Shown: positions 3,851 to 57,789 of the stretch, piece by piece
Numbering within the stretch: position 1 is the stretch's first letter
Layout: each line of letters opens with the position of its first letter
Source of the DNA: a virus
Strand: one strand, 5' to 3'
IMG/VR virus record: IMGVR_UViG_3300024239_000013
Location: 33,142 to 97,141 of that record
DNA: 64,000 nt
Made by a program: the position numbers and the translations under genes
Notes under the pieces: generated by a model
The model's input: the letters and a program-made list of their open reading frames with translations, nothing else
Database searches by the model: none
Told to the model about the DNA's origin: nothing

Positions 3851-3919
3851 GTTATGTTAGGTTATGTTATATTGTATTGTTCCTTGTATATATTTACATG
3901 CGTGTTAAAGAGGATGAGA

Positions 3920-5000
3920 GTTAAGACTAAGACTAAGACTAAGACTAAGGTTTCTCTGGGGAATTTTGGGGAGAATCCCAGAGAGGGCCCGGCCTCCAAA
4001 TAGATAATAGATATAGTAAAGCTAAGTATACTAAGACTAAGACTAAGTATAAAGCTAAAGCTAAAGCTAATTAGACTAAGGCTAAGACTAAGACTAAGTA
4101 TAGACATAGGTATACTAAGAAGACATCCACTATCCAGACTAAGACTAAGACTTGTTCCGTTCCTAGTTCAGCTAAGAGAACTAATCTGAGTGGTGGGCTC
4201 GCGTGCCTCTTGTGGAACCCGGGGCGAGGCGAAGGGTAAAGGGGTACAGAGGGGGTAAACGGGGCGATTATCGGGGCGGGGAAATCGGGGCGAGATTCGG
4301 GGTCGGACTACGGGGGAAGAAACCAAGTTTTTTTCCAGTTTTTTCCAGTTTTTTCCACTTCGTTACACTCTGCCAACTTGGTGGGGAAACCCCGGGGGTA
4401 AACGGGGATTTCTTAGAATCTCCCAGAAACACCCTGGGTGGTGGGCTCGGCCCTAAAGAGGGGCTTCCACAAGGGCCCTTTTTACGAGAAAACCCCCGGT
4501 TGGATATGGATAAGTACCTGGATACTCTCTGGTTGGGTACGACTAAGTGATAGGGATACTCTCTGGTTGGATATGGATAAGTACCTGGATACTCTCTGGT
4601 TACGTAACGATTGGGGAATGTGTCTACGTCTCTCTATGTACTAATGACTGAAGCGTCTTGAATTCCTTACGCGGGTATGCGTCCATGTAGTAACTTACTA
4701 TCATACTATGTTTCTTTAGATAGTGTGGTTATTGTACTTAGTCTTAGTCTTTCTTATCTCTTCTCACTCTACTTGACTACTGAGAATTGGTTTGTTATGC
4801 TACGTAACTTATCTAGTAGTATAATGAGATAGATGTGGATATTATGCTTACTGTGCATCACCCTGGGTAGTCTTAGTCTTAGTCTTAGTCTACCACCTAC
4901 ATTTATGCTTAGCTTTATACTTAGTCTTAGTGACGGAAAATGTATGAGCTATTTGGAGGCCGGGCCCTCTAGGAGAAAGGAGCCCGAAATCCCCCTCGAG
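3920..5000. repeat. GC-rich, G-run-rich non-coding island. It is flanked by perfect 21-bp inverted repeats (AGAGGGCCCGGCCTCCAAATA at 3982-4002; its reverse complement at 4950-4970) and by (TAAGAC)n on the left, (GTCTTA)n on the right. Internal direct repeats: CCAGTTTTTT x3 at 4327-4358, a roughly 32-bp unit duplicated at 4503-4534 and 4570-4601, and ATCGGGGCG-like units at 4260-4310
   Basis: Read directly in the sequence; composition contrasts sharply with the AT-rich surroundings; ORFs inside are low-complexity. Confidence 0.8.
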
Positions 5001-5260
5001 CTCTCATTTCACCCAATTGCCTGATCCATGTTAACCGACATGATATAGAATGGATCTTTTTAAAGTAATATACAGAAAATAAAAGAAACCCATTAAAATT
5101 TTTGAGAATTTCAACTCAAATAAATCTGTTGATATGATCTTGATGGTTTCCCCGAGATCAAAGCGGGGGTGATCGAAAGGACTGGTATGGGATCTTCCTA
5201 GAATTGCAGCACTAAAAAGAATCGGAATGCTTTAATGTCGCATTCAGCATTTAATTAAAA

Positions 5261-5284
5261 GGCAGGTTGATTCCTGCTTTTTTT
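5261..5284 (+). terminator. rho-independent terminator-like hairpin (GCAGG-TTGATT-CCTGC followed by a T-run)
   Basis: Stem-loop plus T-run read in the sequence. Confidence 0.4.
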
Positions 5285-5526
5285 GCGCAGATTCCATAGG
5301 TCTGAGAGTTTTTATTCAAATTCATATATCACAATAAAACAATCAGTATGGTATTTATTATACGCATTCTTAAATGCAGCAAAGTGATTTACAGAAACTC
5401 GCTAAAAAAAGATCTCTATGTCTTTATCCTAACAAAAACCGGACAATGTTTTAGAGATATATAAAACAGAACAAAATAAAAGGTGAATTGTATAAAAAGG
5501 CGGACAATAAAAAAATCCCAAAAAAT

Positions 5527-6354
5527 ATGAGCATTAAGAATTATAAAACATTCATAAGTGAAAGTTCGGATGCAAGTACACTGACAACTGAACAAATAGA
5601 TTTCCTTGACAAGTATGTTATCGGTAAATGGCATATGAATGATGATGGATTTGTTGATGTTGATGGCGTGTTTGATTGTTCTAATAAAGGGATATCTGAT
5701 TTTAAAGGAATAAAGTTTGGTAATGTTGATAGACATTTTAATTGTGCTGATAACAAATTAACCTCATTAGAAGGCGGTCCAAAAGAGGTTGGTGGTAGTT
5801 TTTATTGTAGTCATAACAAAATAACCTCATTAGAATTTGGTCCGAAAGAAGTTGGTGGTCATTTTTATTGTAATCATAACAACATAACCTCATTAGAAGG
5901 TTGTCCAAAAGAGGTCGGCGGTAGTTTTAATTGTTCGTATAACAACTTAATCTCATTAGAATTTGGTCCAAAAGAGGTGAAAGGATATTTTAATTGCTCA
6001 GATAACAACTTAATCTCATTAGAAGGAGCTCCGAAAGAAGTTGACGGTAGTTTTAATTGCTCAGATAACAACTTAATCTCATTAGAAGGAGCTCCAATAG
6101 AAATTGGGCGGGAATTTTATTTGGATCATAACGAAGGTGCATCAGCAGAAACTCTAAAATCGATATACAGTAAAATGAAAGAAGCCAAATCTGATTATAA
6201 AACAGTTTTAAAATCTTTATGGAAAGGAATATCAATAGGAGATAAAATACTTTTATACACACCAGATCTGGATTGGGTTGAAGAAGATGAAGCGGCTAAA
6301 TTATATAACCTAAAGAAGTACAATAGCATAAAGAAAATGCTCTATTTCATATAA
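5527..6354 (+). CDS. targeting-sequence/LRR-like tandem family member 1 (putative capsid-internal, injected protein). Probable start at the internal Met (MSIKNYKTFISESS); the track ORF begins at 5488
   Basis: N-terminal Y-K-T-F-I-S-E-S motif; 22-aa F-x-C-S-x-N-x-L-T/I-S-L-E-G-x-P-K-E-V-G-G repeats; conserved C-terminal domain (KTVLKSLW...LYTPDLDWVEEDE...LKKYNSIKKM). Confidence 0.75.
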   Translation: MSIKNYKTFISESSDASTLTTEQIDFLDKYVIGKWHMNDDGFVDVDGVFDCSNKGISDFKGIKFGNVDRHFNCADNKLTSLEGGPKEVGGSFYCSHNKITSLEFGPKEVGGHFYCNHNNITSLEGCPKEVGGSFNCSYNNLISLEFGPKEVKGYFNCSDNNLISLEGAPKEVDGSFNCSDNNLISLEGAPIEIGREFYLDHNEGASAETLKSIYSKMKEAKSDYKTVLKSLWKGISIGDKILLYTPDLDWVEEDEAAKLYNLKKYNSIKKMLYFI

Positions 6355-6368
6355 TATAAAGAAGCATA

Positions 6369-7064
6369 ATGAAAAGAATCTCAAATTATAAAACATTCAT
6401 AAATGAAAGTACAGGTGCAAGTACATTGACTGCAGAACAGATCGATTTCCTTGATAGATGTGTTAGAGGAACGTGGAAGCTGAATGATGAAGAATTTGTT
6501 GATGTTGATGGGAATTTTGATTGTTTCAATAAAGGAATATCTGACTTTAAAGGAATAAAGTTTGGTAAGGTTAATGGAGATTTTGATTGTTCATATAATA
6601 ATTTAAGTTCTTTGGAAGGATGTCCAAAAGAAGTTGTTGGACATTTTGATTGCTCACATAACAAATTATCTTCATTAGAATTTGCTCCGGAAAGGGTGAG
6701 AAGTAGTTTTTATTGCTCACACAACAACTTAACCTCATTAGAATTTGCTCCGGAAAGGGTGAAAAATAGTTTTTATTGTCAGAATAACAGCTTAACCTCA
6801 TTAGATGGGGTTCCTAAAAAAGTTGGAGGATTTTTTTATTTTGATCATAATGAAGGGATTTCTTCAGAAACCTTAAAAATGATATCCATCCAAATGAAAG
6901 TAATCAAATCTGATTATAAAACAGTTTTAAAATCTTTATGGAGTGAAATACCAGTAGAAGACAAAGTACTTTTATATTCATCAGATCTAGATTGGGTTGA
7001 AGAAGATGAAGGATCTAAATTATCTAATCTAAAGAAGTATAAAAACATAAAGAAAATGATCTAA
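6369..7064 (+). CDS. targeting-sequence/LRR-like tandem family member 2
   Basis: Same N-terminal motif, repeats and C-terminal domain; conserved upstream junction ...TAATATAATATAAAGAAGCATAATG. Confidence 0.8.
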   Translation: MKRISNYKTFINESTGASTLTAEQIDFLDRCVRGTWKLNDEEFVDVDGNFDCFNKGISDFKGIKFGKVNGDFDCSYNNLSSLEGCPKEVVGHFDCSHNKLSSLEFAPERVRSSFYCSHNNLTSLEFAPERVKNSFYCQNNSLTSLDGVPKKVGGFFYFDHNEGISSETLKMISIQMKVIKSDYKTVLKSLWSEIPVEDKVLLYSSDLDWVEEDEGSKLSNLKKYKNIKKMI

Positions 7065-7080
7065 TATAATATAAAGCAAC

Positions 7081-7965
7081 ATGATGAAAAGAATCTCGAA
7101 TTATAAAACATTCATAAACGAAAGCTCGAGTGAAAATAAGCTGACTCAGAAACAACTTGATTTTCTTAACAACCACGTTAAGGGATATTGGAAGTTGAAT
7201 GCTGGAGTTGTTGATGTTGATGGCGATTTTGATTGTTTTAGTAAAGGGATATCAGACTTTAAAGGAATAGTGTTTGGAAAGGTTAGCGGAGATTTTGATT
7301 GCTCACGTAATAATTTAAGTTCTTTAAAAGGTGCTCCTAAAGAGGTTGGTGGACATTTTGATTGTTCACATAACAACTTAAAATCATTAGAAGGAGCTCC
7401 AAAACAGGTTAGTGGAGATTTTGATTGCTCACGTAATAATTTAAGTTCTTTGGAAGGTGCTCCTAAAGAGGTTGGTGGACATTTCCATTGTTCATACAAC
7501 AAATTAACATCATTAGAAGGTTGTCCTAAAGAAGTTGGTGGACATTTTTATTGTTATGTTAACAAATTAACCTCATTAGAATTTGGTCCTAAAGAAGTTG
7601 GTGGAGATTTCGATTGCTCTGACAACAAATTAACCTCATTAGAATTTGGTCCCGAAGAGGTTGGGAGAAGCTTTAATTGCTCAAATAACAAATTAACATC
7701 ATTAGAAGGAGCTCCTAAAGAAGTTGGTGGAGATTTACGATTTTCTCATAATGAGGGAATATCAACCAAAACGATAGGTCTTATATTTGACAAAATGAAA
7801 AAGTCCAAATTGGACTATTCTGATGCTTTAAAATCTTTATGGAAAGAAATACCAGTAGAAGACAAAGTACTTTTATATTCATCAGATCTAGATTGGATTG
7901 AAGAAGATGAAGCGTCTAAATTAGTTAAGTTAAAGAAGTATAATAGCATAAAGAAAATGATCTAA
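7081..7965 (+). CDS. targeting-sequence/LRR-like tandem family member 3
   Basis: Paralog architecture; MMKRISNYKTFINESS start. Confidence 0.8.
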   Translation: MMKRISNYKTFINESSSENKLTQKQLDFLNNHVKGYWKLNAGVVDVDGDFDCFSKGISDFKGIVFGKVSGDFDCSRNNLSSLKGAPKEVGGHFDCSHNNLKSLEGAPKQVSGDFDCSRNNLSSLEGAPKEVGGHFHCSYNKLTSLEGCPKEVGGHFYCYVNKLTSLEFGPKEVGGDFDCSDNKLTSLEFGPEEVGRSFNCSNNKLTSLEGAPKEVGGDLRFSHNEGISTKTIGLIFDKMKKSKLDYSDALKSLWKEIPVEDKVLLYSSDLDWIEEDEASKLVKLKKYNSIKKMI

Positions 7966-7984
7966 TATAATATAAAGAAGCATA

Positions 7985-8869
7985 ATGAAAAGAATCTCAA
8001 ATTATAAAACATTCATAAACGAAAGCTCGAGTGAAAGTACGCTAACACCTGAACAAATTAATTTCCTTAACAATTATGTTAAGGGATATTGGAAGTTGAA
8101 TGCTGATGGAGTTGTTGATGTAGATGGCCATTTTAGTTGTTTCAATAAAGGGTTATCAGACTTTAAAGGAATAGTGTTTGGAAAGGTTAATAGAGATTTT
8201 GATTGTTCAAACAACAACTTAACCTCATTAGAAGGCTGTCCAAAAAAAGTTGGGGGAGATTTTTTTTGTTATGTTAACAAATTAACCTCTTTAAAAGGAT
8301 CGCCAAAAGAGGTTGGTGGTAGTTTTATTTGTTCAGGTAATAACATAATCACATTGGAAGATGCACCTAAAAAAACCAGAAGAAGCTTTGATTGCTCACA
8401 TAATAAATTAACATCATTAGAATTCGGTCCAAAAGAGGTTGGAGGCAATTTTAACTGCTCGCATAATAAATTAACATCATTAGAAGGTGCTCCTGAAGAA
8501 GTTGGTGTGGATTTTTATTGTTATTATAACGAATTGAATAATCTAAAGGGTTCCTCGTATGTAGTTGGAAGAGATTTTAACTGCTCGGATAATAAATTAA
8601 CATCATTAGAAGGAGCTCCAAAAGAAATTGGAGATGATTTCATATTAGAAGATAATGAAGGTGTTTCTTCAGAAATCTTAAAAGAGATATTTAGAAAAAT
8701 GTTAGAATCCAAATTGGACTATAAAACAGTTTTAAAATCTTTATGGAAAGAAATCTCAATAGAAGATAAAATACTTTTATACACACCAGATCTAGACTGG
8801 GTTGAAGAAGATGAAGGGTCCAAATTAGTTAAGCTAAAGAAGTATAGCAACATAAAGAAAATGATCTAG
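7985..8869 (+). CDS. targeting-sequence/LRR-like tandem family member 4
   Basis: Paralog architecture. Confidence 0.8.
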   Translation: MKRISNYKTFINESSSESTLTPEQINFLNNYVKGYWKLNADGVVDVDGHFSCFNKGLSDFKGIVFGKVNRDFDCSNNNLTSLEGCPKKVGGDFFCYVNKLTSLKGSPKEVGGSFICSGNNIITLEDAPKKTRRSFDCSHNKLTSLEFGPKEVGGNFNCSHNKLTSLEGAPEEVGVDFYCYYNELNNLKGSSYVVGRDFNCSDNKLTSLEGAPKEIGDDFILEDNEGVSSEILKEIFRKMLESKLDYKTVLKSLWKEISIEDKILLYTPDLDWVEEDEGSKLVKLKKYSNIKKMI

Positions 8870-8883
8870 TATAAATCAGCATA

Positions 8884-9828
8884 ATGAAAAGAATAATAAA
8901 TTATAAAACATTCGTAAATGAAAGTTCAGGTGCAAGTACACTGACAACTGAACAAATAGATTTCCTTAACAGGTATGTTAGGGGGAAATGGAAGTTGAAT
9001 GCTGGAGTTGTTGATGTTGATGGCGATTTTGATTGTTTTAGTAAAGGGATATCAGACTTTAAAGGAATAGTGTTTGGAAAGGTTAGCGGAGATTTTGATT
9101 GCTCACGTAATAATTTAAGTTCTTTAAAAGGTGCTCCTAAAGAGGTTGGTGGACATTTTGATTGTTCACATAACAACTTAAAATCATTAGAAGATGCACC
9201 TAAAAAAACTGGACGTAGTTTTTATTGTTCGTATAATAAATTAACCTCATTAGAATTTGCTCCGGAAAGGGTGAGAAGTAGTTTTCATTGTCAGAATAAC
9301 AGCTTAACCTCATTAGAAGGAGCTCCTAAAGAAGTTGGAGGGTATTTCGATTGCTCAAGCAACAACTTAACCTCATTAGAAGGAGCTCCAAAAGAGATTG
9401 GGTATGATTTCGATTGCTCACACAACAACTTAACCACATTAGAAGGCTGTCCAAAAGAAATTGTTGAAGATTTCGATTGCTCACACAACAACTTAACCAC
9501 ATTGGAATTCTCTCCAGAGAAAGTTGGTGTTAATTTTTATTGCTTCAATAACAACTTAATTTCATTAAAAGGAGCTCCAAAAGAGATTGGATATGATTTC
9601 ATATTAAAAAATAATGAAGGAGCATCATCAGAAATCTTAAAAGAGATATTTAGAAAAATGTTAGAATCCAAATTGGACTACTCTGATGTTTTAAAATCCC
9701 TTTGGGATGAAATACCAATAAAAGATAAAATAGTTCTATATACCCCTGATCTAGACTGGGTTGAAGAAGATGAAGCGTCTAAATTATCTAAGTTAAAGAA
9801 GTATAGCAACATAAAGAAAATGATCTAG
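8884..9828 (+). CDS. targeting-sequence/LRR-like tandem family member 5
   Basis: Paralog architecture; 9 repeat units. Confidence 0.8.
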   Translation: MKRIINYKTFVNESSGASTLTTEQIDFLNRYVRGKWKLNAGVVDVDGDFDCFSKGISDFKGIVFGKVSGDFDCSRNNLSSLKGAPKEVGGHFDCSHNNLKSLEDAPKKTGRSFYCSYNKLTSLEFAPERVRSSFHCQNNSLTSLEGAPKEVGGYFDCSSNNLTSLEGAPKEIGYDFDCSHNNLTTLEGCPKEIVEDFDCSHNNLTTLEFSPEKVGVNFYCFNNNLISLKGAPKEIGYDFILKNNEGASSEILKEIFRKMLESKLDYSDVLKSLWDEIPIKDKIVLYTPDLDWVEEDEASKLSKLKKYSNIKKMI

Positions 9829-9842
9829 TATAAATCAGCATA

Positions 9843-10727
9843 ATGAAAAGAATAATAAATTATAAAACATTCGTAAATGAAAGTTCAGGTGCAAGTACAC
9901 TGACAACTGAACAAATAGATTTCCTTAACAGGTATGTTAGGGGGAAATGGAAGTTGAATAATGATGGGGTTGTTGATGTAGATGGGGATTTTAATTGTTT
10001 TAATAAAGGGTTATCAGACTTTAAAGAAATAAAATTTGGAAAAGTTACAGGATATTTTGATTGCTCTAAGAACAACTTAACCTCATTAGAGGGTTCACCA
10101 AAAAAAGTTGGTGTAGATTTTTATTGTAGTCATAACAAATTAACCTCATTAGAAGGAGCGCCTATAGAAGTTTATAGAAGTTTCGATTGCAAGGGTAACA
10201 AATTAACCTCGTTAGAATTCGGTCCAAAAAAGGTGGAGGGAAATTTTATTTGTTCAATTAACAAATTAACCTCGTTAGAATTCGGTCCAAAAGGAGTTCC
10301 TGGAACTTTCAATTGTTCATTTAACAAATTAACCTCGTTAGAATTCGGTCCAAAAGAAGTCGGAAGTAGTTTTAATTGCTCATTTAACAACTTAACCTCA
10401 TTAGAATTCTCTCCAGAGAAAGTTGATGTTGATTTTTATTGCTCGAATAATAAATTAACATCATTAGAAGGTGTCCCAAAAGAAATTGGTGGATATTTCT
10501 GGTGTTCTTATAATGTTGGACTATCGACAGATATAATAAATCTTATATTCAGAAAAATGATAAAGTATAGATCTGATTATAAAACAGTTTTAAAATCTTT
10601 ATGGAAAGAAATCTCAATAGAAGACAAGATACTTTTATATTCATCAGATCTAGATTGGATTGAAGAAGATGAAGCGGCTAAATTAGCTAAGTTAAAGAAG
10701 TATAGCAACATAAAGAAAATGATCTAG
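9843..10727 (+). CDS. targeting-sequence/LRR-like tandem family member 6
   Basis: Paralog architecture; 5' region nearly identical to member 5 at the nucleotide level. Confidence 0.8.
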   Translation: MKRIINYKTFVNESSGASTLTTEQIDFLNRYVRGKWKLNNDGVVDVDGDFNCFNKGLSDFKEIKFGKVTGYFDCSKNNLTSLEGSPKKVGVDFYCSHNKLTSLEGAPIEVYRSFDCKGNKLTSLEFGPKKVEGNFICSINKLTSLEFGPKGVPGTFNCSFNKLTSLEFGPKEVGSSFNCSFNNLTSLEFSPEKVDVDFYCSNNKLTSLEGVPKEIGGYFWCSYNVGLSTDIINLIFRKMIKYRSDYKTVLKSLWKEISIEDKILLYSSDLDWIEEDEAAKLAKLKKYSNIKKMI

Positions 10728-10741
10728 TATAAATCAGCATA

Positions 10742-11689
10742 ATGAAAAGAATAATAAATTATAAAACATTCATAAACGAAAGCTCGAGTGAAAATAACTT
10801 GACACCTGAACAGATATATTTCCTGAACAAGCAGATTAAGGGGAAATGGAAGTTGAATGCTGATGGGGTTGTTGATGTTGTTGGAAATATCCATTGTTCA
10901 CATAGAGAAATATCGGACTTCAAGGGAATAAAATTCGGAAAAGTTACTGGGTATTTTGATTGCTCAAATAACAACTTAACATCATTAGAGGGTTGTCCAA
11001 AAGAGGTTGGTGGACATTTTTATTGTTCATATAACAGCTTAACATCATTAGAGGGTTGTCCAAAAGAGGTTGGGGGACATTTTTATTGTCAACGTAACAA
11101 CTTAACCTCATTAGAAGGTGGTCCAGAAAGAGTGAATGGAGATTTCATTTGTTATGGTAACAAATTAGCTTCATTAGAATTTGGACCCAAGGAGGTTAGA
11201 GGTACTTTCGATTGCTCAAATAACAAATTAACATCCTTAGAAGGATGCTCTAAAGAGGTGAATGGAGATTTCGATTGCACATATAACAAATTAACATCAT
11301 TAGAATTCTCTCCAGTTAAAGTTGGTGGTACTTTCGATTGTTCAGATAATAACTTAACCTCATTAGAATTTGGACCTGAAGATGTTGGGGGAGGCTTTAA
11401 TTGTTCCCGTAATAAATTAACCTCATTAGAAGGAGCTCCTAAAGAAGTTGGAGGTACTTTACGATGTTTTTATAATGAGGGTTTATCAAACGAAACAATA
11501 GGTCTTATATTTGAAAAAATGATAAAATCCAGATTGGATTATAAAACAGTTTTAAAATCTTTATGGGGAGAAATACCAATAAAAGATAAAATAGTTCTAT
11601 ATACCCCTGATCTGGATTGGGTTGAAGGAGATGAAGCGGCTAAATTATCTAATCTAAAGAAGTATAGCAACATAAAGAAAATGATCTAA
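10742..11689 (+). CDS. targeting-sequence/LRR-like tandem family member 7
   Basis: Paralog architecture. Confidence 0.8.
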   Translation: MKRIINYKTFINESSSENNLTPEQIYFLNKQIKGKWKLNADGVVDVVGNIHCSHREISDFKGIKFGKVTGYFDCSNNNLTSLEGCPKEVGGHFYCSYNSLTSLEGCPKEVGGHFYCQRNNLTSLEGGPERVNGDFICYGNKLASLEFGPKEVRGTFDCSNNKLTSLEGCSKEVNGDFDCTYNKLTSLEFSPVKVGGTFDCSDNNLTSLEFGPEDVGGGFNCSRNKLTSLEGAPKEVGGTLRCFYNEGLSNETIGLIFEKMIKSRLDYKTVLKSLWGEIPIKDKIVLYTPDLDWVEGDEAAKLSNLKKYSNIKKMI

Positions 11690-11705
11690 TATAATATAAA
11701 AAAAC

Positions 11706-12653
11706 ATGATGAAAAGAATAGTAAATTATAAAACATTCATAAACGAAAGCTCTGGTGAAAATAACCTGACCCCAGAACAAATTGATTTCCTTAACAACTA
11801 TGTTAAGGGGAAATGGAAGTTTAATGTTGGAGTTGTTGATATTGATGGCGATTTTAGTTGTTTCGATAGAGGAATATCTGACTTTAAAGGAATAGTGTTT
11901 GGAAGGGTTACCGGTCATTTTGACTGTTCGGATAACAACTTAACATCATTAGAAGGTTGTCCAAAAGAGGTTGGTGGAAATTTTTATTGTCATTATAACA
12001 ACTTAACCTCATTAGAAGGTTGTCCAAAAGAGGTTGGCGGACATTTTTATTGTCATTATAACAACTTAACATCATTAGAAGGTTGTCCAAAAAAAGTGAA
12101 TGGAGATTTCGATTGCACAGATAACAACTTAACCTCATTAGAATTCGGTCCAAAAGAGATTAATGGACATTTTTATTGTTATGATAACAGCTTAACCTCA
12201 TTAGAATTTGGTCCCGAAAGAGTGAATGGAGATTTTGATTGTTCGAATAACAACTTAACCTCATTAGAATTTGGACCCAAAGAGGTTGGTGGTACTTTCG
12301 ATTGCTCACGTAATAACTTAAGCTCGTTAGAAGGTGTTCCTGAAAAGCTGAACGGAGTTTTTTATTTCTCATGTAACAAATTAACCTCATTAGAAGGTGC
12401 TCCTAAAAAACTAGGATCACAATTTTTTTGTGAGAATAATGAAGGGATATCAACCAAAACGATAAATCTTATATTTGACAAAATGGAAACCTCCAAATCT
12501 GATTATAAAACAGTTTTAAAATCTTTATGGAAAGAAATACCAATAGAAGATAAAATACTTTTATACACCCCAGATCTTGATTGGGTTGAAGAAGATGAAG
12601 GGTCTAAATTAGCTAAGTTAAAGAAGTATAGCAACATAAAGAAAATGATCTAA
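11706..12653 (+). CDS. targeting-sequence/LRR-like tandem family member 8
   Basis: Paralog architecture. Confidence 0.8.
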   Translation: MMKRIVNYKTFINESSGENNLTPEQIDFLNNYVKGKWKFNVGVVDIDGDFSCFDRGISDFKGIVFGRVTGHFDCSDNNLTSLEGCPKEVGGNFYCHYNNLTSLEGCPKEVGGHFYCHYNNLTSLEGCPKKVNGDFDCTDNNLTSLEFGPKEINGHFYCYDNSLTSLEFGPERVNGDFDCSNNNLTSLEFGPKEVGGTFDCSRNNLSSLEGVPEKLNGVFYFSCNKLTSLEGAPKKLGSQFFCENNEGISTKTINLIFDKMETSKSDYKTVLKSLWKEIPIEDKILLYTPDLDWVEEDEGSKLAKLKKYSNIKKMI

Positions 12654-12671
12654 TATAATATAAAGAGCACA

Positions 12672-13367
12672 ATGAAAAGAATAGTAAATTATAAAACTTT
12701 CATAAATGAAAGTGCAGGTGCAAGTACACTGACTTCAGAACAGATAGATTTCCTTAACAACTATGTTAAGGGGAAATGGAAGCTGAATGGTGAAGGATTT
12801 ATTGATATAGATGGTGATTTTAGTTGTTTCGATAAAGGGTTATCAGACTTTAGATGGATAAAATTTGGAAAAGTTACAGGGTATTTTTATTGTTCATATA
12901 ATGGATTGACATCATTAGAGGGAGCACCAAAAAAAGTTGGTTTGAGTTTTTATTGTCATAATAACAAATTAACATCATTGGATGGCTCTCCTAAAGAGAT
13001 TGGTGGAAATTTCGATTGCTCTGACAACAAATTAACCTCATTAGAATTCTCACCCGAAAGTGTAAAGGGGAGCTTTGATTGCTCATATAACAACTTAACA
13101 TCATTAGAATTTGGTCCTAAAGAAGTTGGCGGAGATTTACGATTTTCTCATAATGAGGGATTGTCAACCAAAACGATAGGTCTTATATTTGACAAAATGG
13201 AAAAGTCCAAATTGGACTATAAAACAGTTTTAAAATCTTTATGGAAAGAAATACCAATAGAAGATAAAATACTTTTATACAATGCGGATCTAGATTGGAT
13301 TGAAGGAGATGAAGCGGCTAAATTAGCTAAGTTGAATAAATATAGCAACATAAAGAAAATGATCTAA
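12672..13367 (+). CDS. targeting-sequence/LRR-like tandem family member 9 (short, fewer repeats)
   Basis: Paralog architecture. Confidence 0.8.
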   Translation: MKRIVNYKTFINESAGASTLTSEQIDFLNNYVKGKWKLNGEGFIDIDGDFSCFDKGLSDFRWIKFGKVTGYFYCSYNGLTSLEGAPKKVGLSFYCHNNKLTSLDGSPKEIGGNFDCSDNKLTSLEFSPESVKGSFDCSYNNLTSLEFGPKEVGGDLRFSHNEGLSTKTIGLIFDKMEKSKLDYKTVLKSLWKEIPIEDKILLYNADLDWIEGDEAAKLAKLNKYSNIKKMI

Positions 13368-13386
13368 TATAATATAAAGAAACATA

Positions 13387-14271
13387 ATGAAAAGAATAGT
13401 AAATTATAAAGCATTCATAAACGAAATCTCGAGTGAAAATAACTTGACACCAGAACAGATAGATTTCCTTAACAGGTATGTTGAGGGGAAATGGAAGTTG
13501 AATGCTGATGGAGCTGTTGATGTAGATGGCGATTTTAGTTGTTTCGATAAAGGGTTATCAGACTTTAAAGGAATAGTGTTTGAGAAGATTAGTGGAGATT
13601 TTGACTGTTCGGCTAACAGCTTAATATCATTAGAAGGTTGTCCAAAAGAGGTTAATGGATATTTTTATTGTCATTATAACAAACTAACCTCATTAGAATT
13701 TGGTCCTGAAAGTGTAGATGGAGATTTCGATTGTTCGAATAACAATTTAACTTCATTAGAATTTGGACCCAAAGAGGTTGGTGGAAATTTTGACTGTTCA
13801 TACAACAAATTAACCTCATTAGAAGTCTGTCCAAAAAAAGTTGGGGGAACTTTCAATTGTTCATTTAATAAATTAACATCATTAGAATTCAGTCCAAAAG
13901 AGGTTGGTGGTAGTTTCAATTGCTCATTTAACAACTTAACATCGTTGCAATTCTCTCCAGAGAAAGTTGATGCTTATTTTCATTGTTCAAATAACAACTT
14001 AACCTCATTAGAAGGGGTATCAAAAGAAGTTGGAGGGAATTTAAGATGTTTTTATAATGAAGGGCTATCAACCGAAACAATAAATCTTATATTTGACAAA
14101 ATGATAAAGTCCAAATTGGACTATTCTGATGCTTTAAAATCTTTATGGAAAGAAATACCAGTAGAAGACAAAGTACTTTTATACACACCCGATCTAGATT
14201 GGGTTGAAGAAGACGAAGCGTCTAAATTAGCTAAGCTAAAGAAGTATAGCAGCATAAAGAAAATGATCTAG
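13387..14271 (+). CDS. targeting-sequence/LRR-like tandem family member 10
   Basis: Paralog architecture. Confidence 0.8.
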   Translation: MKRIVNYKAFINEISSENNLTPEQIDFLNRYVEGKWKLNADGAVDVDGDFSCFDKGLSDFKGIVFEKISGDFDCSANSLISLEGCPKEVNGYFYCHYNKLTSLEFGPESVDGDFDCSNNNLTSLEFGPKEVGGNFDCSYNKLTSLEVCPKKVGGTFNCSFNKLTSLEFSPKEVGGSFNCSFNNLTSLQFSPEKVDAYFHCSNNNLTSLEGVSKEVGGNLRCFYNEGLSTETINLIFDKMIKSKLDYSDALKSLWKEIPVEDKVLLYTPDLDWVEEDEASKLAKLKKYSSIKKMI

Positions 14272-14285
14272 TATAAAGAAGAATA

Positions 14286-15233
14286 ATGAAAAGAATAGTA
14301 AATTATAAAACTTTTATAAACGAAAGTTCAGGTGCAAGTACACTGACAACTGAACAGATAGATTTCCTTAACAGGTATGTTAAGGGGAAATGGAAGTTGA
14401 ATGATAATGGAGTTGTTGATGTTGATGGTGATTTTAGTTGTTCCGATAAAGAAATATCAGACTTTAAAGGAATAATATTTGGAAAAGTTACCGGTCATTT
14501 CTATTGCTCAAGTAACAACTTAAGATCATTAGAAGGTTGTCCCAAAGAGGTTGGAGGGGGTTTCAATTGCTCACGTAATGAATTAACATCATTGGAAGGT
14601 TGTCCAGAAAGGGTGAATGGAGATTTCATTTGTTATGGTAACAACTTAACCTCATTAGAAGGTTGTACAGAAAGAGTGAATGGAGATTTCATTTGTTCGG
14701 CTAACAACTTAACCTCATTAGAAGGCTGCCCTAAGGAAGTTGAGGGATTTTTCAATTGTTCATTTAATAAATTAGCTTCTTTAGAAGGATGTCCTGGAGA
14801 AATTGGAAGTAGTTTTTATTGTTCGTATAACAAATTAACCTCATTAGAATTTGGCCCAGAAATGGTGAATGGAGATTTCGTTTGTTCAGATAACAAATTA
14901 ACCTCGTTAGAATTCAGTCCAAAAGAAGTTGGTGGTAATTTTATTTGTTCAGATAACAACTTAACATCATTAGAGGGAATATCAAAAAAAGTTGGGGGAT
15001 CTTTATGGTGTTCTTCTAATGAAGGACTATCAACCGAAACGATAGATCTTATATTTGATAAAATCATAAAGTTCAAATTGGACTATTTGGATGCTTTAAA
15101 TTTTTTATGGGAGGATATCCCAATAGAAGATAAAGTACTTTTATACACACCCGATTTAGATTGGATTGAAGGAGAGGAAGCGGTTAAATTATCTAATCTA
15201 AAGAAGTATAGTAAAATAAAGAAAATGATATAA
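14286..15233 (+). CDS. targeting-sequence/LRR-like tandem family member 11
   Basis: Paralog architecture. Confidence 0.8.
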   Translation: MKRIVNYKTFINESSGASTLTTEQIDFLNRYVKGKWKLNDNGVVDVDGDFSCSDKEISDFKGIIFGKVTGHFYCSSNNLRSLEGCPKEVGGGFNCSRNELTSLEGCPERVNGDFICYGNNLTSLEGCTERVNGDFICSANNLTSLEGCPKEVEGFFNCSFNKLASLEGCPGEIGSSFYCSYNKLTSLEFGPEMVNGDFVCSDNKLTSLEFSPKEVGGNFICSDNNLTSLEGISKKVGGSLWCSSNEGLSTETIDLIFDKIIKFKLDYLDALNFLWEDIPIEDKVLLYTPDLDWIEGEEAVKLSNLKKYSKIKKMI

Positions 15234-21438: not shown

Positions 21439-21834
21439 CTATTTTTCGTAATAAAAAATCGTATAACCCTCTCCTTCAAAAGCACCTTTGCTTGTTATTG
21501 AAACTATTTCTATTCTATCCTCTTGTTCATTAACCCAATTGACTAGTGTTCCTGCATATTTAAAAGAATCAACCCTTAATTTTCTTATAATTATTAATTC
21601 CCCACTCCCATTTCCCTCTTCAGATTTCGTAAAATGCCTTCTTGTTAATTCAGTTAAAATTAAATTACGCAAACCCATTACTCCAGTAATAAAATCATTT
21701 GTTGAGATTTTATAATGACTCACTAAGAATCTAATATGAGAATCATCAGGAAAGTTTGAAGAATCGCTTTCCCTTGATAATTCTATTAAGGAATCAGTAT
21801 CCAATTTTGATAGATATTCGAAAATATTTTCCAT
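21439..21834 (-). CDS. hypothetical protein
   Basis: 131-aa ORF. Confidence 0.5.
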   Translation of the reverse strand: MENIFEYLSKLDTDSLIELSRESDSSNFPDDSHIRFLVSHYKISTNDFITGVMGLRNLILTELTRRHFTKSEEGNGSGELIIIRKLRVDSFKYAGTLVNWVNEQEDRIEIVSITSKGAFEGEGYTIFYYEK

Positions 21835-21849
21835 TTTTTTTAATTTTTG

Positions 21850-22011
21850 TAATCAGGACAGGGTTCGAACCTGTACGATTAAGTTTTTCCTAGTGAATAT
21901 CTAAATTAACTTTTGGTTTTGCTAATCTCTGAATTCACCTTGGTTACGTCTGCCTACCCACTTAATCTAAAAACCATATTAAATAGCGTCTACCAATTCC
22001 GCCACCTGATC
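21850..22011 (-). tRNA. tRNA-like gene of about 162 nt. 5' end GAUCAGG-UG-GCG-GAAUUGGUAGA-CGC (type-II Leu/Tyr/Ser-like acceptor and D-arm); 3' end ACAGG-UUCGAAC-CCUGU-CCUGAUU-A (T-arm and acceptor). They are separated by about 110 nt instead of about 30, so it carries insertion(s) or intron(s). The insert holds a candidate anticodon hairpin GGUGA-AU-UCA-G...UCACU (anticodon UCA, which would read UGA)
   Basis: Hand folding of the reverse complement; the 7-bp acceptor pairs, including one G-U. Confidence 0.5.
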
Positions 22012-22081
22012 TTATTTTATTATTGTTAATTCTTTTTATAATAAAATCCTAGAAATTTTTATTTAATTTATTTTTATTATT

Positions 22082-22330
22082 CTATGATTCGAATTTTAAA
22101 TAATCGCCATCTCTCTGATCTAGGATAAGATTAACTTTACTCCATCCGGCTTTTATGTATCTGTCTCTAAGAACATAAAAATGAGTATGATCTAGACCAG
22201 ATGGGATTCGTATGTATATGCTCTGACCTTTTGATATTGATTTTTTAGATAATCTGGAATCTATCTCTTTTTCGTATAGATCTACATCTTCTTGAAATTT
22301 TTCTATTAATTTTATTGGTGATATTGCCAT
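22082..22330 (-). CDS. hypothetical protein
   Basis: 82-aa ORF. Confidence 0.45.
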   Translation of the reverse strand: MAISPIKLIEKFQEDVDLYEKEIDSRLSKKSISKGQSIYIRIPSGLDHTHFYVLRDRYIKAGWSKVNLILDQRDGDYLKFES

Positions 22331-22453
22331 TTTTTATCTATTTTTTTATATTTTATTAAGAAACCCATATTCGATTTCTTACATATATTAATACATTTCT
22401 AACTTAGCCAAAACAAAATTATGTATTATGATAAATGTGACTTATATTTTTAA

Positions 22454-22753
22454 TTATAATTCACTGTTAAATCTACTTAAATCCTGAGAATAGTCTATTT
22501 CTGTGTGGGGATAAATAGGAAATTCTGGTACATTGTATTCTAAATCCAATTCAGAAAGATAAGCGATCCCTCCGTTTGTCAAACTACCTCCTTTGATGTA
22601 AACATAATGTCACCTTTCGTCATTGTAGACATGTTCGTCTGAGATAAAAATAATAGGTTCACACGCCAAATATTGGTCTGATAAGCTTTTGATTGTAAAT
22701 TTTGAATTTAATCTGACTCTAACCCCTCTTGCAATTTGATTAGATTTTATCAT
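22454..22753 (-). CDS. hypothetical protein (100 codons) interrupted by a single in-frame TGA at 22610-22612: MIKSNQIARGVRV...HVYNDER-[TGA]-HYVYIKGGSLTNGGIAYLSELDLEYNVPEFPIY...
   Basis: Both halves are open in the same frame (47 and 52 codons) in an AT-rich context where random ORFs of that length are unlikely; not in the supplied track. Confidence 0.5.
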
Positions 22754-22771
22754 AAATGTTTTTTTTTTATA

Positions 22772-22900
22772 TTACCAGGACAGGATTCGAACCTGCATCT
22801 CCTTATCAATGGCACCTGGAACTTTCACACATCAATGTGACTGATAAATTCACACTCTGAAGCTACTCCTTCTTGCGTCTTCCGATTCCGCCACCTGGAT
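22772..22900 (-). tRNA. second tRNA-like gene of about 129 nt. 5' end AUCCAGG-UG-GCG-GAAUCGGAAGA-CGC; 3' end GCAGG-UUCGAAU-CCUGU-CCUGGUA-A; about 80-nt middle section (contains CUUCAGA). Two acceptor pairs are mismatched as read
   Basis: Hand folding; 5' and 3' portions are paralogous to the 21850-22011 element. Confidence 0.4.
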
Positions 22901-22916
22901 ATTTTATAATTAACTA

Positions 22917-23264
22917 TTAATCCCTACTTAAAAATTTGATATAATAGCCTTCTCTGTTTATGTGCAATTTTTCTAAAAGCCCCAAGTCCATTAATTTATT
23001 AATCTGGTCCTGATTTGGTTCTTTTTCCATAACAGCTCCCCCATAGACCCTGCTACCTATCTTAATCCACCCTAGATCCTCTACATGTTTTTCTGGGTTT
23101 GATTTTTCTGGAAATATCTCTTCTACTATCTCGTAATGAAAGGATACATATTCGGAATCCATGTCTCCTTTAAATCTGTGAATTTTCCCGTACGTATCAA
23201 TCCAGAATTCTCTTTCTACTCTTTTAAGATTACTTTTCCTTATCATAACAATTTCCTCTTCCAT
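22917..23264 (-). CDS. hypothetical protein
   Basis: 115-aa ORF. Confidence 0.5.
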   Translation of the reverse strand: MEEEIVMIRKSNLKRVEREFWIDTYGKIHRFKGDMDSEYVSFHYEIVEEIFPEKSNPEKHVEDLGWIKIGSRVYGGAVMEKEPNQDQINKLMDLGLLEKLHINREGYYIKFLSRD

Positions 23265-23685: not shown

Positions 23686-23871
23686 TTAAATGAAAGTTAA
23701 TTTTAGATCAGAAGCAGGGTATTTTATCCTCGTTGTGCTACTTGATTTTATCTCTCCTACAACTATAATATAATTTCCTTGTCTGTATGCCCCCTTGGCC
23801 TCGTAATTTTTACCGTAGGGTATCGGGTATTTTGGAGATTCGTTAATAATCTCTACTATTACTTTTTCCAT
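23686..23871 (-). CDS. hypothetical protein
   Basis: 61-aa ORF. Confidence 0.35.
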   Translation of the reverse strand: MEKVIVEIINESPKYPIPYGKNYEAKGAYRQGNYIIVVGEIKSSSTTRIKYPASDLKLTFI

Positions 23872-23993: not shown

Positions 23994-24266
23994 TCATAAT
24001 TTAATTTTTTTATGTAATTTATTAAATCCTTTTTTTATGTCTGAAAGTATTTTACTAGGAGTTGATAGTTCCAAATCCCATCTTTTTACTTTTTCCTCAC
24101 TTTCTAGAACAATTTTATCGTGGAGATAATCAGTAATTAAAGAATCTAGTTCTTTTCTAATTAATTCTTTGCAATCTTCACATGATAAAATAAAAAGAGG
24201 TTTATCTTGATCAGTTGTAAATTTATATTTGGCCTTATTTCCACATTTACATTTATGTTCATCCAT
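23994..24266 (-). CDS. small zinc-ribbon protein (CKCGN...CEDCK)
   Basis: 90 aa with two Cys pairs. Confidence 0.45.
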   Translation of the reverse strand: MDEHKCKCGNKAKYKFTTDQDKPLFILSCEDCKELIRKELDSLITDYLHDKIVLESEEKVKRWDLELSTPSKILSDIKKGFNKLHKKIKL

Positions 24267-24777: not shown

Positions 24778-25008
24778 ATGCAAAAAAAGAATATCCAGAC
24801 GATTCTGTTGGTATTGGCTACGTTTTTCAATCCACTTGGATTCGATGCTCTCTTCGCTATTGTGATGAAGTGGACCGGATCTTATTGGATAACAGATGGA
24901 ATTTTCTATTGCCTATCAGCACTATTTTTTGGTCTATATTACTGGGTCTCTAAAAAATCCCCAAGATTTATAATATTTGGACCAAAAAAGAAAAAGATTA
25001 GCCAATAA
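24778..25008 (+). CDS. small two-helix membrane protein
   Basis: 76 aa; hydrophobic helices ILLVLATFFNPLGF and IFYCLSALFFGLYYWV. Confidence 0.45.
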   Translation: MQKKNIQTILLVLATFFNPLGFDALFAIVMKWTGSYWITDGIFYCLSALFFGLYYWVSKKSPRFIIFGPKKKKISQ

Positions 25009-25189
25009 CATTGGCTTTTTCTTTTTCTTTTGTTTTATTGATTTTTTTAAAAGCCATTTCGTATGATTCGACCAAGGAATTTCCGTCTTTGATATATTCC
25101 ATAGCTAGATCCATAACCTCTTTTTGTATACCCAACTTATAACATTCATAGAGGATTTCTTCTATTATTTCTGAACCAGTTAAACTCAT
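24998..25189 (-). CDS. hypothetical protein
   Basis: 63-aa ORF. Confidence 0.4.
   Translation of the reverse strand: MSLTGSEIIEEILYECYKLGIQKEVMDLAMEYIKDGNSLVESYEMAFKKINKTKEKEKANVIG
25000..25021 (+). terminator. terminator-like hairpin (AGCCAAT-AAC-ATTGGCT followed by TTTTT) overlapping the convergent gene ends
   Basis: Read in the sequence. Confidence 0.4.
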
Positions 25190-25397
25190 TTTATTAATTT
25201 TTTTTAATATCGATTTTTCATTATGATTAAAAAAACATTCTCTTTTTTCTACATCCAGTTCATTTAATAAGATGTCTGGATGCTAACCTTTCATTTTTTT
25301 TCAAATATAACATCAACAATTTTCTTACCGTACTTATTCATTGCCTCTTCTATGAATTCTTTTTTTATTACTATTGCTCCTATCATAATAGTCTTTT

Positions 25398-34505: not shown

Positions 34506-34831
34506 TACTTAAATCTTTTTATAACTTTAAGTTTATCTATTTCAAATGCCATTTCTTCTAGTGACTTAGTTTCAAATATTATTTCATTTTTATCAACATC
34601 CATCATTACTCTATCATACTCACCAGTTTCTTTATTTCTTACTACGAAACAAGCCACTTTTAAAGAATCGTTCTGCTCACCAGATCCCCATAATACTGAT
34701 TTATCGACTGCGTGTCTTGTGCTTATTTTGTCATGAAACCACTCGTGTGTTTCTGACTCCCAATACAAACCATCTCTTTCTAAAAATTCGTTTCTTTCCA
34801 TACTTATTTTTCTGTTGTTGGTTTTAGCCAC
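34505..34831 (-). CDS. hypothetical protein
   Basis: 108-aa ORF. Confidence 0.45.
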   Translation of the reverse strand: MAKTNNRKISMERNEFLERDGLYWESETHEWFHDKISTRHAVDKSVLWGSGEQNDSLKVACFVVRNKETGEYDRVMMDVDKNEIIFETKSLEEMAFEIDKLKVIKRFK

Positions 34832-35547
34832 ATTCCATTACTAAAAATGATCTGAATTATTCTTGGATTAATTTTCTTTATATTTTCTAATAGCTCAAGT
34901 GTTTTGATAGTGTCTTCTTTGAACATCTTAAATATCTCCTCCCTTATTCTTTCCTGAGAAACAACCTTTTCTAATTTATCGATAACTTCTTCGTTTGAAC
35001 AAACTTTCATAATCTCTTCCGAAATAGTAAATCCTTTTGTTACTGAAAATCTAAAAGCTCGTATAAGTCTTAATGGATCATCTAGCATGGTCTTTTCGGT
35101 TTCTAATGGTGTTATTAGGATTTTATTTTTCAAGTGCTCTAGACCACCAAAATGATCTATAATTCGACCATATTCATCTTTTGCTAAAGCATTCAAAGTA
35201 AAATCTCTTCTTTTTAAGTCGTCGTTAAGATTACCTGGTTTTATTATAGGTTGTCTAGTTCCTGGAAAATAACCAACCTCTTTTCTTGACATTACAAAAT
35301 CTGCAACCCCCTGATATTTGTGATTTGCTGGGAATTGTGCTCTTATTGTAAAACAATCGGGATGTGTTACAAATATTCTGAAACCCTCATTATTCAAATA
35401 GGTTTCCAGAATAGTAAACATTTCATAAGCTGTATAGTCTCTTGACAATAAACTTTCATACGGAACTGCTACATAATCAACATCCTTTGAAACCAAACCT
35501 AAAATTTCATCTCGGACCTTTCCTCCGACTTCGTAAAATGTAAACAT
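34804..35547 (-). CDS. minimal tRNA nucleotidyltransferase (CCA- or A-adding enzyme head domain; polymerase beta superfamily)
   Basis: GGKVRDEILG...DVDYV motif, RRDFTLNALA motif and DPLRLIRAFRF motif are the class-II CCA-adding head-domain signatures. Confidence 0.7.
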   Translation of the reverse strand: MFTFYEVGGKVRDEILGLVSKDVDYVAVPYESLLSRDYTAYEMFTILETYLNNEGFRIFVTHPDCFTIRAQFPANHKYQGVADFVMSRKEVGYFPGTRQPIIKPGNLNDDLKRRDFTLNALAKDEYGRIIDHFGGLEHLKNKILITPLETEKTMLDDPLRLIRAFRFSVTKGFTISEEIMKVCSNEEVIDKLEKVVSQERIREEIFKMFKEDTIKTLELLENIKKINPRIIQIIFSNGMWLKPTTEK

Positions 35548-38166: not shown

Positions 38167-38625
38167 TTAATTTTCTGATATTTGACTTGAAATCTTTTTA
38201 ACTTTACCAATATCCGCTCTTCCTTGATATTTTTTATTAAACTCACCGATGGTTTTACCTATTAGCGCCTGCTTATTGGTAATCACGTTTTTAAAGCTTT
38301 TCATAATTTCTGAAAGTGCCTCTTCAACCTCTTTATCCGACATTTGTGCTGGCATATAATTTCTAAGAACTGAAGCTTCTGCAGATTCCTTTATAGCCAA
38401 ATCATGTCTTCCGTTTTTTTCAAAGATTTCAATTGACTCTTCCCTTTGCTTGATTGCCTTGTTAATTATTTTAAGAAAATCAGCATCTGTCATTTCCACA
38501 TTTGGATTTGATTTTTCTGCAAGTGTAATTGCTGATTTTACACTACTCAAAGCTGCCTTAGCATCATTGTCCTTATTCTTCATTGCAGATAAAAAATCTG
38601 CATTTACCCTTTCTTTAATTGTCAT
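38167..38625 (-). CDS. YqeY/GatB-domain protein
   Basis: Full-length similarity to the YqeY family (MKxxDxxAKxALSSxK..., KQREESIEIFEKNGRHDLAxKE, YMPxQMSDxE, GRADIGKV). Confidence 0.65.
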   Translation of the reverse strand: MTIKERVNADFLSAMKNKDNDAKAALSSVKSAITLAEKSNPNVEMTDADFLKIINKAIKQREESIEIFEKNGRHDLAIKESAEASVLRNYMPAQMSDKEVEEALSEIMKSFKNVITNKQALIGKTIGEFNKKYQGRADIGKVKKISSQISEN

Positions 38626-39457
38626 CTATCTTTGTTTTTAAAGTATTTCTAATAAAATCTCTTTCCTGTGTAAATATTGGGGTTTCTACAACAGACCATT
38701 TATTCCTTTTGTATGTTTCTCCATTTTCTATGTTATTCATAGTAACCTGAATTTTTTTAATTACCGCCCCCCTTTTTTTTCGGAAATCATAATCATTCCA
38801 GTTGATCCCCTTCTGAAAAATCATTTCTTGCAACTGGTCAGTTTTTACCCCATTTAATTGATTGTGACTATAAAGACTTTGTGCCACCGAAGAGATGCTA
38901 TTCCTTACTGCATCTTGTTGTCTCCAGATAAAGTAGTTTTCGACCTCATCTATAAAAGGGATTTGAAATGCTCTGGCATCGAACGTAGCAAGTTTGAAAT
39001 TTTCAATTTCAGATTCTTTTAAAAGATTTCCATCGTAATTCATCGAATGATTAGCAATTCCAAATTCATTACAAAACCTTTTCATTCTAAGTTGATTAAA
39101 TTTTGCTGTAGCCATAGATGATGCAACAGAAACCATTTTTTGCAAGTTATTATCAAACCATGCATGTGTTCCAAGATCGTCGAAATCTGTTAGTAAAAGA
39201 CTTATCTCATCTGACTGAACGTAACCTAACTTGGTTCCTTGTATGTTTTTGCAGAGATAAACTGTTGTCTCATTCATGTCTTCAATTAGACCTTCGTCAA
39301 ATGGACGTTCTAAACCTTTAGTGTAGGTGTGAAATGCTTTCCCGTCGATCCTGATGATCGTGTAAGTTCTTCTTGGGAGCTTGATCCTTGTTCTATCTTC
39401 GTAGAACTCTTTCATTCTGTCGCCTAATGCGTCTTTCATAATATTTGCTTTATGCAA
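38615..39457 (-). CDS. Thg1-like protein (tRNA-His guanylyltransferase family 3'-5' nucleotidyltransferase)
   Basis: GDRMKEFYE, IIRIDGKAFHTYTKGLERPFDE and YVQSDEISLL match the catalytic core of Thg1 and bacterial Thg1-like proteins. Confidence 0.75.
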   Translation of the reverse strand: MHKANIMKDALGDRMKEFYEDRTRIKLPRRTYTIIRIDGKAFHTYTKGLERPFDEGLIEDMNETTVYLCKNIQGTKLGYVQSDEISLLLTDFDDLGTHAWFDNNLQKMVSVASSMATAKFNQLRMKRFCNEFGIANHSMNYDGNLLKESEIENFKLATFDARAFQIPFIDEVENYFIWRQQDAVRNSISSVAQSLYSHNQLNGVKTDQLQEMIFQKGINWNDYDFRKKRGAVIKKIQVTMNNIENGETYKRNKWSVVETPIFTQERDFIRNTLKTKIDDN

Positions 39458-45716: not shown

Positions 45717-46454
45717 TTATTTCTCCTTTAGCAAGAATGAATTAGAAATGGATTTGAAAGATATTGTTTTATCCTTGTTTCTAATAACCACTCCTTCTCT
45801 CTCCGCTCCATTGTATAGTTTTGATTTACCCTCTGCGTAAAGAAGAATTTCATCGACAGTTTCTGGTAGGCTATAATTTTCCTCGAGCACAGGAACAAGT
45901 TCAAGTGGTTTATCGTCATTATTAACTTTAGATAGGAATTCCCTCATTTCATCTAATCCTAGATATTCTTGAGTGTCAATATTGAAAATATTGAAAACTC
46001 TAAGAGTATGCCCTTTTATTTTATATGGATTCCCTTGAATTCCTTCACCGATAAGTTCACCCTGGATTGCGTAATTTTGATTAAGAGATCCTAGTTTTTC
46101 TGCTATCTTTAGCTCTCTAGCAACCTTCCAGAATGTATTTTCTTTTTTGGTTCTTTCGACACCATCTTCACCAATGATAGTACCAGGTACAAATTCTCCA
46201 GGATCCGCTAACTCAAGGTTTCTTGAACAGACTCCGAAAACTCCGTCTTTTAAATAGAAGGTTGCGGAACTTCCGTCTAGTTTTTCAGTCACATAAAACC
46301 TTTCAGTCTTCCAGCCCTCGTACTCTTTGGTTAGATTTTGACAGTTATGTACTAAAATATCGTTTGCATAGAAGTTATGAACTTTATCTACTTCAATGTC
46401 ATAACGTTTTGATTCATGATTTATCTTCTTAATAGATTTAATTTTATCTAACAT
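45717..46454 (-). CDS. C-terminal half of a fractured polynucleotide ligase. The C-half of a split intein (residues 1-37, ...KVHNFYANDILVHN; about 46344-46454) is fused to an Rnl2-like nucleotidyltransferase domain starting at Cys+1 (CQNL...VTEKLDGSSATFYLKDG)
   Basis: Split-intein C-half-like terminal HN followed by Cys; KxDG adenylyltransferase motif I, motif IV GEGIQG and motif V REGVVIR in the extein. Confidence 0.7.
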   Translation of the reverse strand: MLDKIKSIKKINHESKRYDIEVDKVHNFYANDILVHNCQNLTKEYEGWKTERFYVTEKLDGSSATFYLKDGVFGVCSRNLELADPGEFVPGTIIGEDGVERTKKENTFWKVARELKIAEKLGSLNQNYAIQGELIGEGIQGNPYKIKGHTLRVFNIFNIDTQEYLGLDEMREFLSKVNNDDKPLELVPVLEENYSLPETVDEILLYAEGKSKLYNGAEREGVVIRNKDKTISFKSISNSFLLKEK

Positions 46455-47416: not shown

Positions 47417-47490
47417 AATAAGTTTCCTTTTATTTATATATCTCTTATTTATATAAAAAACAATAAATAATCAGTCTTTTTAATAACTTT

Positions 47491-56386: not shown

Positions 56387-56392
56387 AATTAT

Positions 56393-57490: not shown

Positions 57491-57789
57491 TTCATATTAT
57501 TATAGTCGCAAATGTATGATATTATTTCGGGATTAAAAAAAATTAAAGATAAAGTTTTACTTTTTTAATGATTATTTATATAAGAATGAATGCAGGTAAC
57601 TTTCAATTTATATTTTATCCACATAACAATAACCATTTCAATTAAGGTCGTTTGTAATTTTAAATTTCAGAAAAGGAACGACACATACATCTATCAATTA
57701 AAAGTAATTCTAAAAAAAATTAATAGAATTTAAGATAGATATATTTTTTAAAAATACGCGTGAACAACTTCTATTTTCATATTCACGTT

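Follow-up and report, generated by a model that had tools for sequence, protein, structure and literature searches.

The interrupted frame and its genomic setting

The window, by which we mean the whole 64,000-nucleotide stretch of viral DNA that was analysed, has a GC content of about 30%. A greedy gene map under the standard code resolved it into 110 tightly packed genes. The phage is huge, with one contig of 276 kb, and contigs of 353-365 kb carry homologues. Its best relative, a distant one, is the 642-kb phage LR756502.1 (64% amino-acid identity in one protein). The huge phages LR756502 and LR745206 matched the window by protein or DNA, and the 3' end of the tRNA-like elements described below found partial matches in crAss-like and Tenacibaculum phages; no Lak phage record was among the matches. 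As the relatives are huge phages and the partial matches are to crAss-like and Tenacibaculum phages, they hint at a standard-code Bacteroidota host.

A minus-strand reading frame occupies positions 22454-22753. The frame runs from an ATG (22751-22753) to a terminal TAA (22454-22456) and contains one internal stop, a TGA at 22610-22612 that reads t-c-a on the plus strand. The joined frame translates as MIKSNQ...YNDER*HYVYIKGG...NSEL*. The open reading frame (ORF) listing breaks it into a 47-aa ORF starting with ATG (22610-22753) and a 42-aa ORF starting with TTG (22454-22582), and codon-usage scores, taken against the long ORFs of the window, were positive for both halves. Since translation, ORF listing and codon usage agree, the first-pass annotation was right to describe a 100-codon frame with a single TGA at this place. 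It had also placed the ORF exactly between two tRNA-like genes; the frame is indeed flanked by both, but an intact 82-aa ORF intervenes on the side of element A. The features of the locus are as follows:

21848..22012, minus strand: tRNA-like element A, with constant ends as in element B and a 111-nt centre
22082..22330, minus strand: intact 82-aa ORF between the disrupted gene and element A
22454..22753, minus strand: disrupted gene for a conserved 99-aa phage protein (16 uninterrupted homologues; AlphaFold model)
22454..22609, minus strand: C-terminal 51 codons plus TAA, 3' of the stop, with TTG 22582 as the sole in-frame start
22610..22612, minus strand: in-frame TGA, one base from GGA (Gly48); the sister strain reads AGG GGA CAT
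22610..22753, minus strand: residual N-terminal ORF of 47 codons, ATG to TGA, covering about half of the predicted domain
22772..22899, minus strand: tRNA-like element B, with a leucine-type D arm, T arm, acceptor and a 78-nt non-canonical centre

Several other features of the window were recorded. An RNA ligase gene is fractured into three ORFs at 45717-48300 on the minus strand. The first (47491-48300) encodes the ligase OB-fold domain and an N-terminal intein part, the second (46448-47416) a free-standing endonuclease-like protein (DUF7487/DUF559), and the third (45717-46454) a C-terminal intein part and the RNA_ligase domain; the arrangement resembles that of a split intein whose halves are separated by a homing-endonuclease gene. 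On the plus strand, about ten paralogous genes, each for a protein of 231-315 aa, stand in tandem at 5527-15233 with 14-19 nt between them. Two members were tested: the protein of 10742-11689 matched LRR_4 and LRRNT, and that of 6369-7064 matched the same families below threshold. The preceding 1.7 kb (3851-5526) is without a convincing ORF, has a GC content of about 0.39 against about 0.30 in the rest of the window, and gave no Rfam match at gathering score. An RNA repair and processing cluster, all on the minus strand (34804-35547, 38615-39457 and 55742-57490), comprises a PolyA_pol-family nucleotidyltransferase of the CCA-adding type, a Thg1-family protein, a T4 Rnl1-like RNA ligase and a metallophosphoesterase; the window encodes several RNA ligases. 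This cluster may act on the insert-bearing tRNA-like RNAs.

Homologues, the sister strain and the Gly48 codon

The two halves were joined and searched against 5.8 billion proteins. The search returned 16 homologue clusters (E = 1e-24 to 1e-58, 60-98% identity), with an overall length range of 87-100 aa; 15 of the 16 were full length at 98-100 aa, and P0016 (87 aa) covered 88% of the query. None of the 16 was interrupted at the TGA position. Because both halves are coding-like and 16 homologues read through, the frame is a real gene. In the alignment, all 16 homologues carry glycine under the TGA column (G48), within the conserved motif Y-N-D-x-x-G-x-Y-V.

For the 99-aa protein, neither Pfam nor PHROG gave a significant family, the weak matches staying below threshold at E about 0.02, and tblastn found no match to it among GenBank phages. 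An AlphaFold model built from the 16-sequence alignment is confident (mean pLDDT 86) and predicts a small beta-rich domain in which Gly48 sits at the turn linking strands 43-45 and 48-55. A Foldseek comparison with the PDB gave nothing at E <= 0.001, and only weak resemblances to SH3-like folds and small beta-barrels (best E = 0.06).

Genes for protein P0001, which shares 98% identity, lie on two contigs, one of 83 kb in ENA (sample SAMEA4777514) and one in Logan (run ERR2683257). These two contigs provide the sister-strain loci L001 and L002, which share 97% nucleotide identity with the window over 16.6 kb and 99% around the gene. Only two bases differ across the whole gene: one lies at the stop, where the window reads AGG TGA CAT and L001/L002 read AGG GGA CAT, and the other is GTC versus ATC (V13I). 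The gene shows no further decay. The Gly48 codon is GGA in L001, L002, L003 and L005 and GGT in L004 and L006, where L003-L006 are more distant IMG/VR loci. In five homologous loci (L001 and L003-L006; about 25 codons), all of the glycine codons are GGN and none is TGA. With GGA in the sister strain and GGA or GGT in the distant loci, the ancestral state is GGA, and the coding strand of the window carries a single G-to-T change; at plus-strand position 22612 the window has A and the sister strain C. Orthologues that are intact and have a sense codon one base away from a stop are what a nonsense mutation leaves behind. That the lost codon specified glycine is weak evidence for a code in which UGA means glycine, since GGA is the starting codon for 3 of the 16 single-base routes to TGA that the gene offers (about 1 in 5, a prior of about 19%).

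The comparison with the sister strain took in 28 genes, 24 of which were gap-free and full length; among these 24, no gene but the one described here has an internal stop in the window. A neighbouring gene, 24998-25386 on the minus strand, is decayed in the window. Its sister copy encodes 127 aa (L001 7374-7757), and the window copy carries homopolymer indels (+2 A, +1 T, +2 A) and a CAG to TAG change, so that a 63-aa C-terminal ORF is all that remains. This gene is the exception to the otherwise essentially correct first-pass statement that the other genes are intact under the standard code. The reverse case was also observed: a 1-nt deletion in L001/L002 (GGCCAAGGGGG to GGCCAGGGGG) truncates the homologue of the window's intact 61-aa ORF 23686-23871 (minus strand) to 35 aa (L001 8885-8992, L002 2466-2573). 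As nearby genes are broken in one strain or the other, the decay of small genes is background in this region. About 6.5% of the possible single-base changes in the gene create a stop, and roughly 435 substitutions separate the two strains, so one surviving nonsense change is unremarkable.

TGA usage and the flanking tRNA-like elements

The 110 predicted genes end in TAA (77), TAG (25) or TGA (8). Five of the eight TGA stops form ATGA stop/start overlaps with the next gene (30138, 42844, 53752, 59687 and 62029), and the TGA stop of gene 23994-24266 is common to the window and L001. Same-frame ORF pairs around one stop were scored for codon usage, and a second coding frame interrupted by TGA was not found in the 64 kb; a count of in-frame stops had been proposed as a check on recoding, and within the window its outcome argues against it. 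Dropping TGA as a stop lengthened ORFs no more than dropping TAG did. TGA is an ordinary terminator in this genome. Many in-frame TGAs, low coding density under code 11 and disuse of TGA as a stop would mark a recoded genome; the window shows none of these, and its relatives do not share in-frame TGAs at glycine or tryptophan positions, those that were read having GGA or GGT.

Scans of the window for codes 4/25 and 15 gave a signal no greater than chance. Two TAG codons were also considered. The TAG-separated pair at 55742-57496 consists of two genes with separate starts, for an RNA ligase and a metallophosphoesterase, and 5' of the TAG at 45562 the sequence shows little coding character; neither case is a split gene.

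Elements A and B share the leucine-type 5' part GGTGGCGGAATyGGwAGACGC and the T arm plus acceptor CAGGTTCGAAyCCTGTCCTG. Folding of their centres (111 and 78 nt, respectively) formed no anticodon arm. ARAGORN with default settings found no tRNA or tmRNA in the 64-kb window, and Rfam returned nothing at gathering score anywhere in it, with sub-threshold matches only at E up to 10. On element B the Rfam tRNA model reached 21.6 bits, below its threshold of 29, and did so only by leaving out the D and anticodon arms. When introns were allowed, ARAGORN called element A Ile(aat) or His(atg) depending on the settings; these calls are unreliable because the anticodon varies with the settings. A canonical tRNA has a 5-bp anticodon stem, a 7-nt loop and a score above threshold, and this combination was found in neither element. 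Their earlier designation as tRNA genes is therefore upheld neither by ARAGORN in its default mode nor by Rfam at gathering score.

A candidate UCA anticodon had been reported in one of the neighbours. Both elements contain UUCAGAG, which is presumably the sequence meant and can be read as U33 followed by UCA. The same letters could just as well be a CAG (Leu) anticodon like that of E. coli tRNA-Leu, and they are not closed by any 5-bp stem. Elements A and B were put through all possible single excisions of 10-124 nt (12,766 variants). The anticodon calls were scattered and included two equivalent 'tca' solutions, with two mismatches in the 5 bp of the anticodon stem; excisions of element B gave poor Leu(cag) calls only. 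No credible UCA tRNA thus emerged from ARAGORN, Rfam or the excisions, and no tRNA with a UCA anticodon is detectable in the 64-kb window. Furthermore, both elements also flank the GGA allele in L001/L002 (element B with two substitutions there), and since the same elements accompany the intact allele, they are not linked to the TGA.

The elements belong to a larger family. Elements related to A and B occur in L004 (6430-6545, 6697-6771 and 9416-9517) and in loci L009-L128, and a scan of viral contigs in IMG/VR found at least 165 distinct elements on at least 120 contigs. The 5' end, which comprises the acceptor and a leucine-type D arm, is nearly constant (AGTCAGGTGGCGGAATTGGTAGACGC); although it lay outside the search pattern, it was 79-99% conserved per position, save for a single position in the D loop (61%). 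A constant 3' end (ACAGGTTCGAATCCTGTCCTGACTA) is followed by C, and CCA is seldom encoded. Between the two ends lies a hypervariable centre of about 33 to more than 130 nt, which in at least 124 of the at least 165 elements was unrelated to any other among the matches listed. Up to eight copies per contig occur among the matches listed, within arrays of ordinary tRNA genes. A canonical anticodon arm is missing from most of the listed elements, and T-arm-like hairpins are nested within some of the centres. Clusters of orthologues show compensatory changes in the centre, for example GTTGAA..TTCAAC versus GAGCAA..TTGCTC. A literature search by the end sequences found no paper, and a large family of this kind is apparently undescribed. 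The closest published description is that of the 'enigmatic introns' reported for the tRNAs of Lak megaphages (PMC6784885).

Explanations for the in-frame TGA

The locus is very probably a strain-specific pseudogene of a small conserved accessory gene, produced by a recent GGA to TGA nonsense mutation. On this reading, a recent substitution of one base (coding-strand G to T, or C to A at 22612 of the plus strand) turned the invariant Gly48 codon into a stop that is seen in no other strain of this huge gut phage, whose genome exceeds 276 kb. Ribosomes would be expected to terminate at 22610-22612 as at the other TGA stops of the genome, and the predicted product is a 47-residue fragment without half of the beta-rich domain, so loss of gene function is likely. 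The lack of further decay fits a very recent event, and does not in itself prove loss of function. A pseudogene had been the fallback among the options first listed, and GGA in the sister strain and glycine in all homologues support it.

The difference might instead be a sequencing or assembly error, with a true base that gives GGA. A single-base departure from the sister strain at an invariant residue would look like this, and G-to-T is a known type of oxidative-damage artefact. However, the 47-aa fragment is a called gene on the 44-kb Logan contig SRR7690231_26833, which shares 6,144 bases with the window at 100% identity, TGA included, and the 276-kb ENA contig ERZ27245855:k141_97055 (MEGAHIT-style) is 100% identical over 5,396 bases with the same TGA. 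The base is thus reproduced in three assemblies from different pipelines (window, Logan and ENA), possibly all from one sample. An error private to one assembler is excluded because the other two carry the TGA base for base; the site lies outside any homopolymer, and a consensus error would require most reads to be wrong. We consider error, which the first-pass annotation had kept among its options, improbable; the TGA allele could be a population variant. It is very unlikely that the mutation is real and the gene works in two pieces, with the 47-aa N-terminal fragment complemented by a 42-aa C-terminal fragment re-initiated at TTG 22582. This in-frame TTG does have AAGGAGG upstream, but that sequence encodes the conserved K-G-G-S, residues 48-57 would be lost, including a central strand of the predicted domain, and no homologue is split likewise.

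The remaining explanations retain an intact product. Decoding of UGA as an amino acid, either in a code-25 host or by a suppressor tRNA(UCA) derived from an insert-bearing tRNA-like gene, is very improbable. We regard as extremely doubtful the more specific proposal that UGA is read as glycine during infection, by a code-25 host or by a suppressor matured by the phage's own RNA-ligase, nucleotidyltransferase and Thg1 toolkit, in which case GGA to TGA would be silent and the gene intact. The TGA does replace a glycine codon, as would be silent under code 25, UUCAGAG can be read as U33 plus UCA, the window encodes the nucleotidyltransferase, Thg1 and RNA ligases, and standard-coding phages of code-25 bacteria have been described, some phages of code-25 Gracilibacteria and Absconditabacteria keeping standard coding (PMC10746230). 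Against this stand the eight genes ending in TGA, five of them as ATGA overlaps, the single TGA-interrupted coding frame in 64 kb, and the complete absence of TGA from the glycine codons of the five homologous loci. No tRNA was recognised in the window, the excisions gave no credible UCA tRNA, the D arm of the elements is of the leucine and not the glycine type, the same elements stand beside the GGA allele, and the host hinted at by the nearest relatives would use the standard code. Opal read-through or suppression by a phage tRNA(UCA), as first suggested, is thus not supported, given that this TGA is not conserved, that TGA terminates genes elsewhere in the window and that no UCA tRNA is detectable there. 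Programmed, regulated read-through or selenocysteine insertion at the UGA is likewise extremely unlikely. The frame is open on both sides and the UGA is followed by C, a leaky context that makes a weak terminator in E. coli. However, a programmed stop would be expected to be conserved among relatives, and this one occurs neither in the 97%-identical strain nor in any of the 16 homologues; it is therefore no conserved signal of that kind. The 91 nt around and 3' of the UGA fold like shuffled sequences (z = -0.26), and the sub-threshold Rfam matches in 21700-23000 include no SECIS or recoding element. A selenoprotein would have a SECIS just 3' of the UGA and Cys or Sec in its homologues; the earlier remark that no SECIS was obvious is borne out, as there is neither such a hairpin nor an Rfam match, and the homologous residue is Gly, not Cys or Sec, which together count against the selenocysteine option. 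At most, trace near-cognate read-through is possible at UGA-C, and it would most likely insert Trp at the invariant glycine.

The nonsense-mutation reading amounts to one broken accessory gene in one strain, with no evidence for stop-codon recoding in the phage lineage. A lone in-frame stop is best compared with the nearest strain before recoding is invoked, and the flanking tRNA-like elements are of more interest than the broken gene between them.

The locus resembles several known systems in part. Stop-codon-recoded phages read TAG as Gln, as in Lak megaphages and others, or TGA as Trp (bioRxiv 10.1101/2021.08.26.457843, PMC6784885, PMC8346664). Like them, this is a huge AT-rich gut phage with unusual tRNA genes; however, they have many in-frame recoded stops, low code-11 density and a cognate suppressor tRNA, whereas the window has high code-11 density, a single in-frame TGA, TGA terminators and no suppressor that was found. 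Genetic code 25, used by Gracilibacteria, Absconditabacteria and their phages (PMC10746230), likewise places UGA where relatives have glycine, but in code-25 genomes UGA-Gly is repeated and UGA does not terminate; the window has one instance and eight TGA-terminated genes. Bacterial selenoprotein genes also have an in-frame UGA within a conserved ORF, from which this locus differs in having no SECIS-like hairpin, Gly rather than Cys in its homologues and a UGA that is not conserved. The match is closest in kind to strain-specific nonsense pseudogenes in phage accessory genes, with which it shares a single-base change from sense to stop, intact close and distant orthologues, and neighbouring small genes that have frameshifts or stops in some strain. 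Nothing distinguishes it from these save that the lost codon encoded glycine, and the decay would be of an ordinary, strain-level kind.
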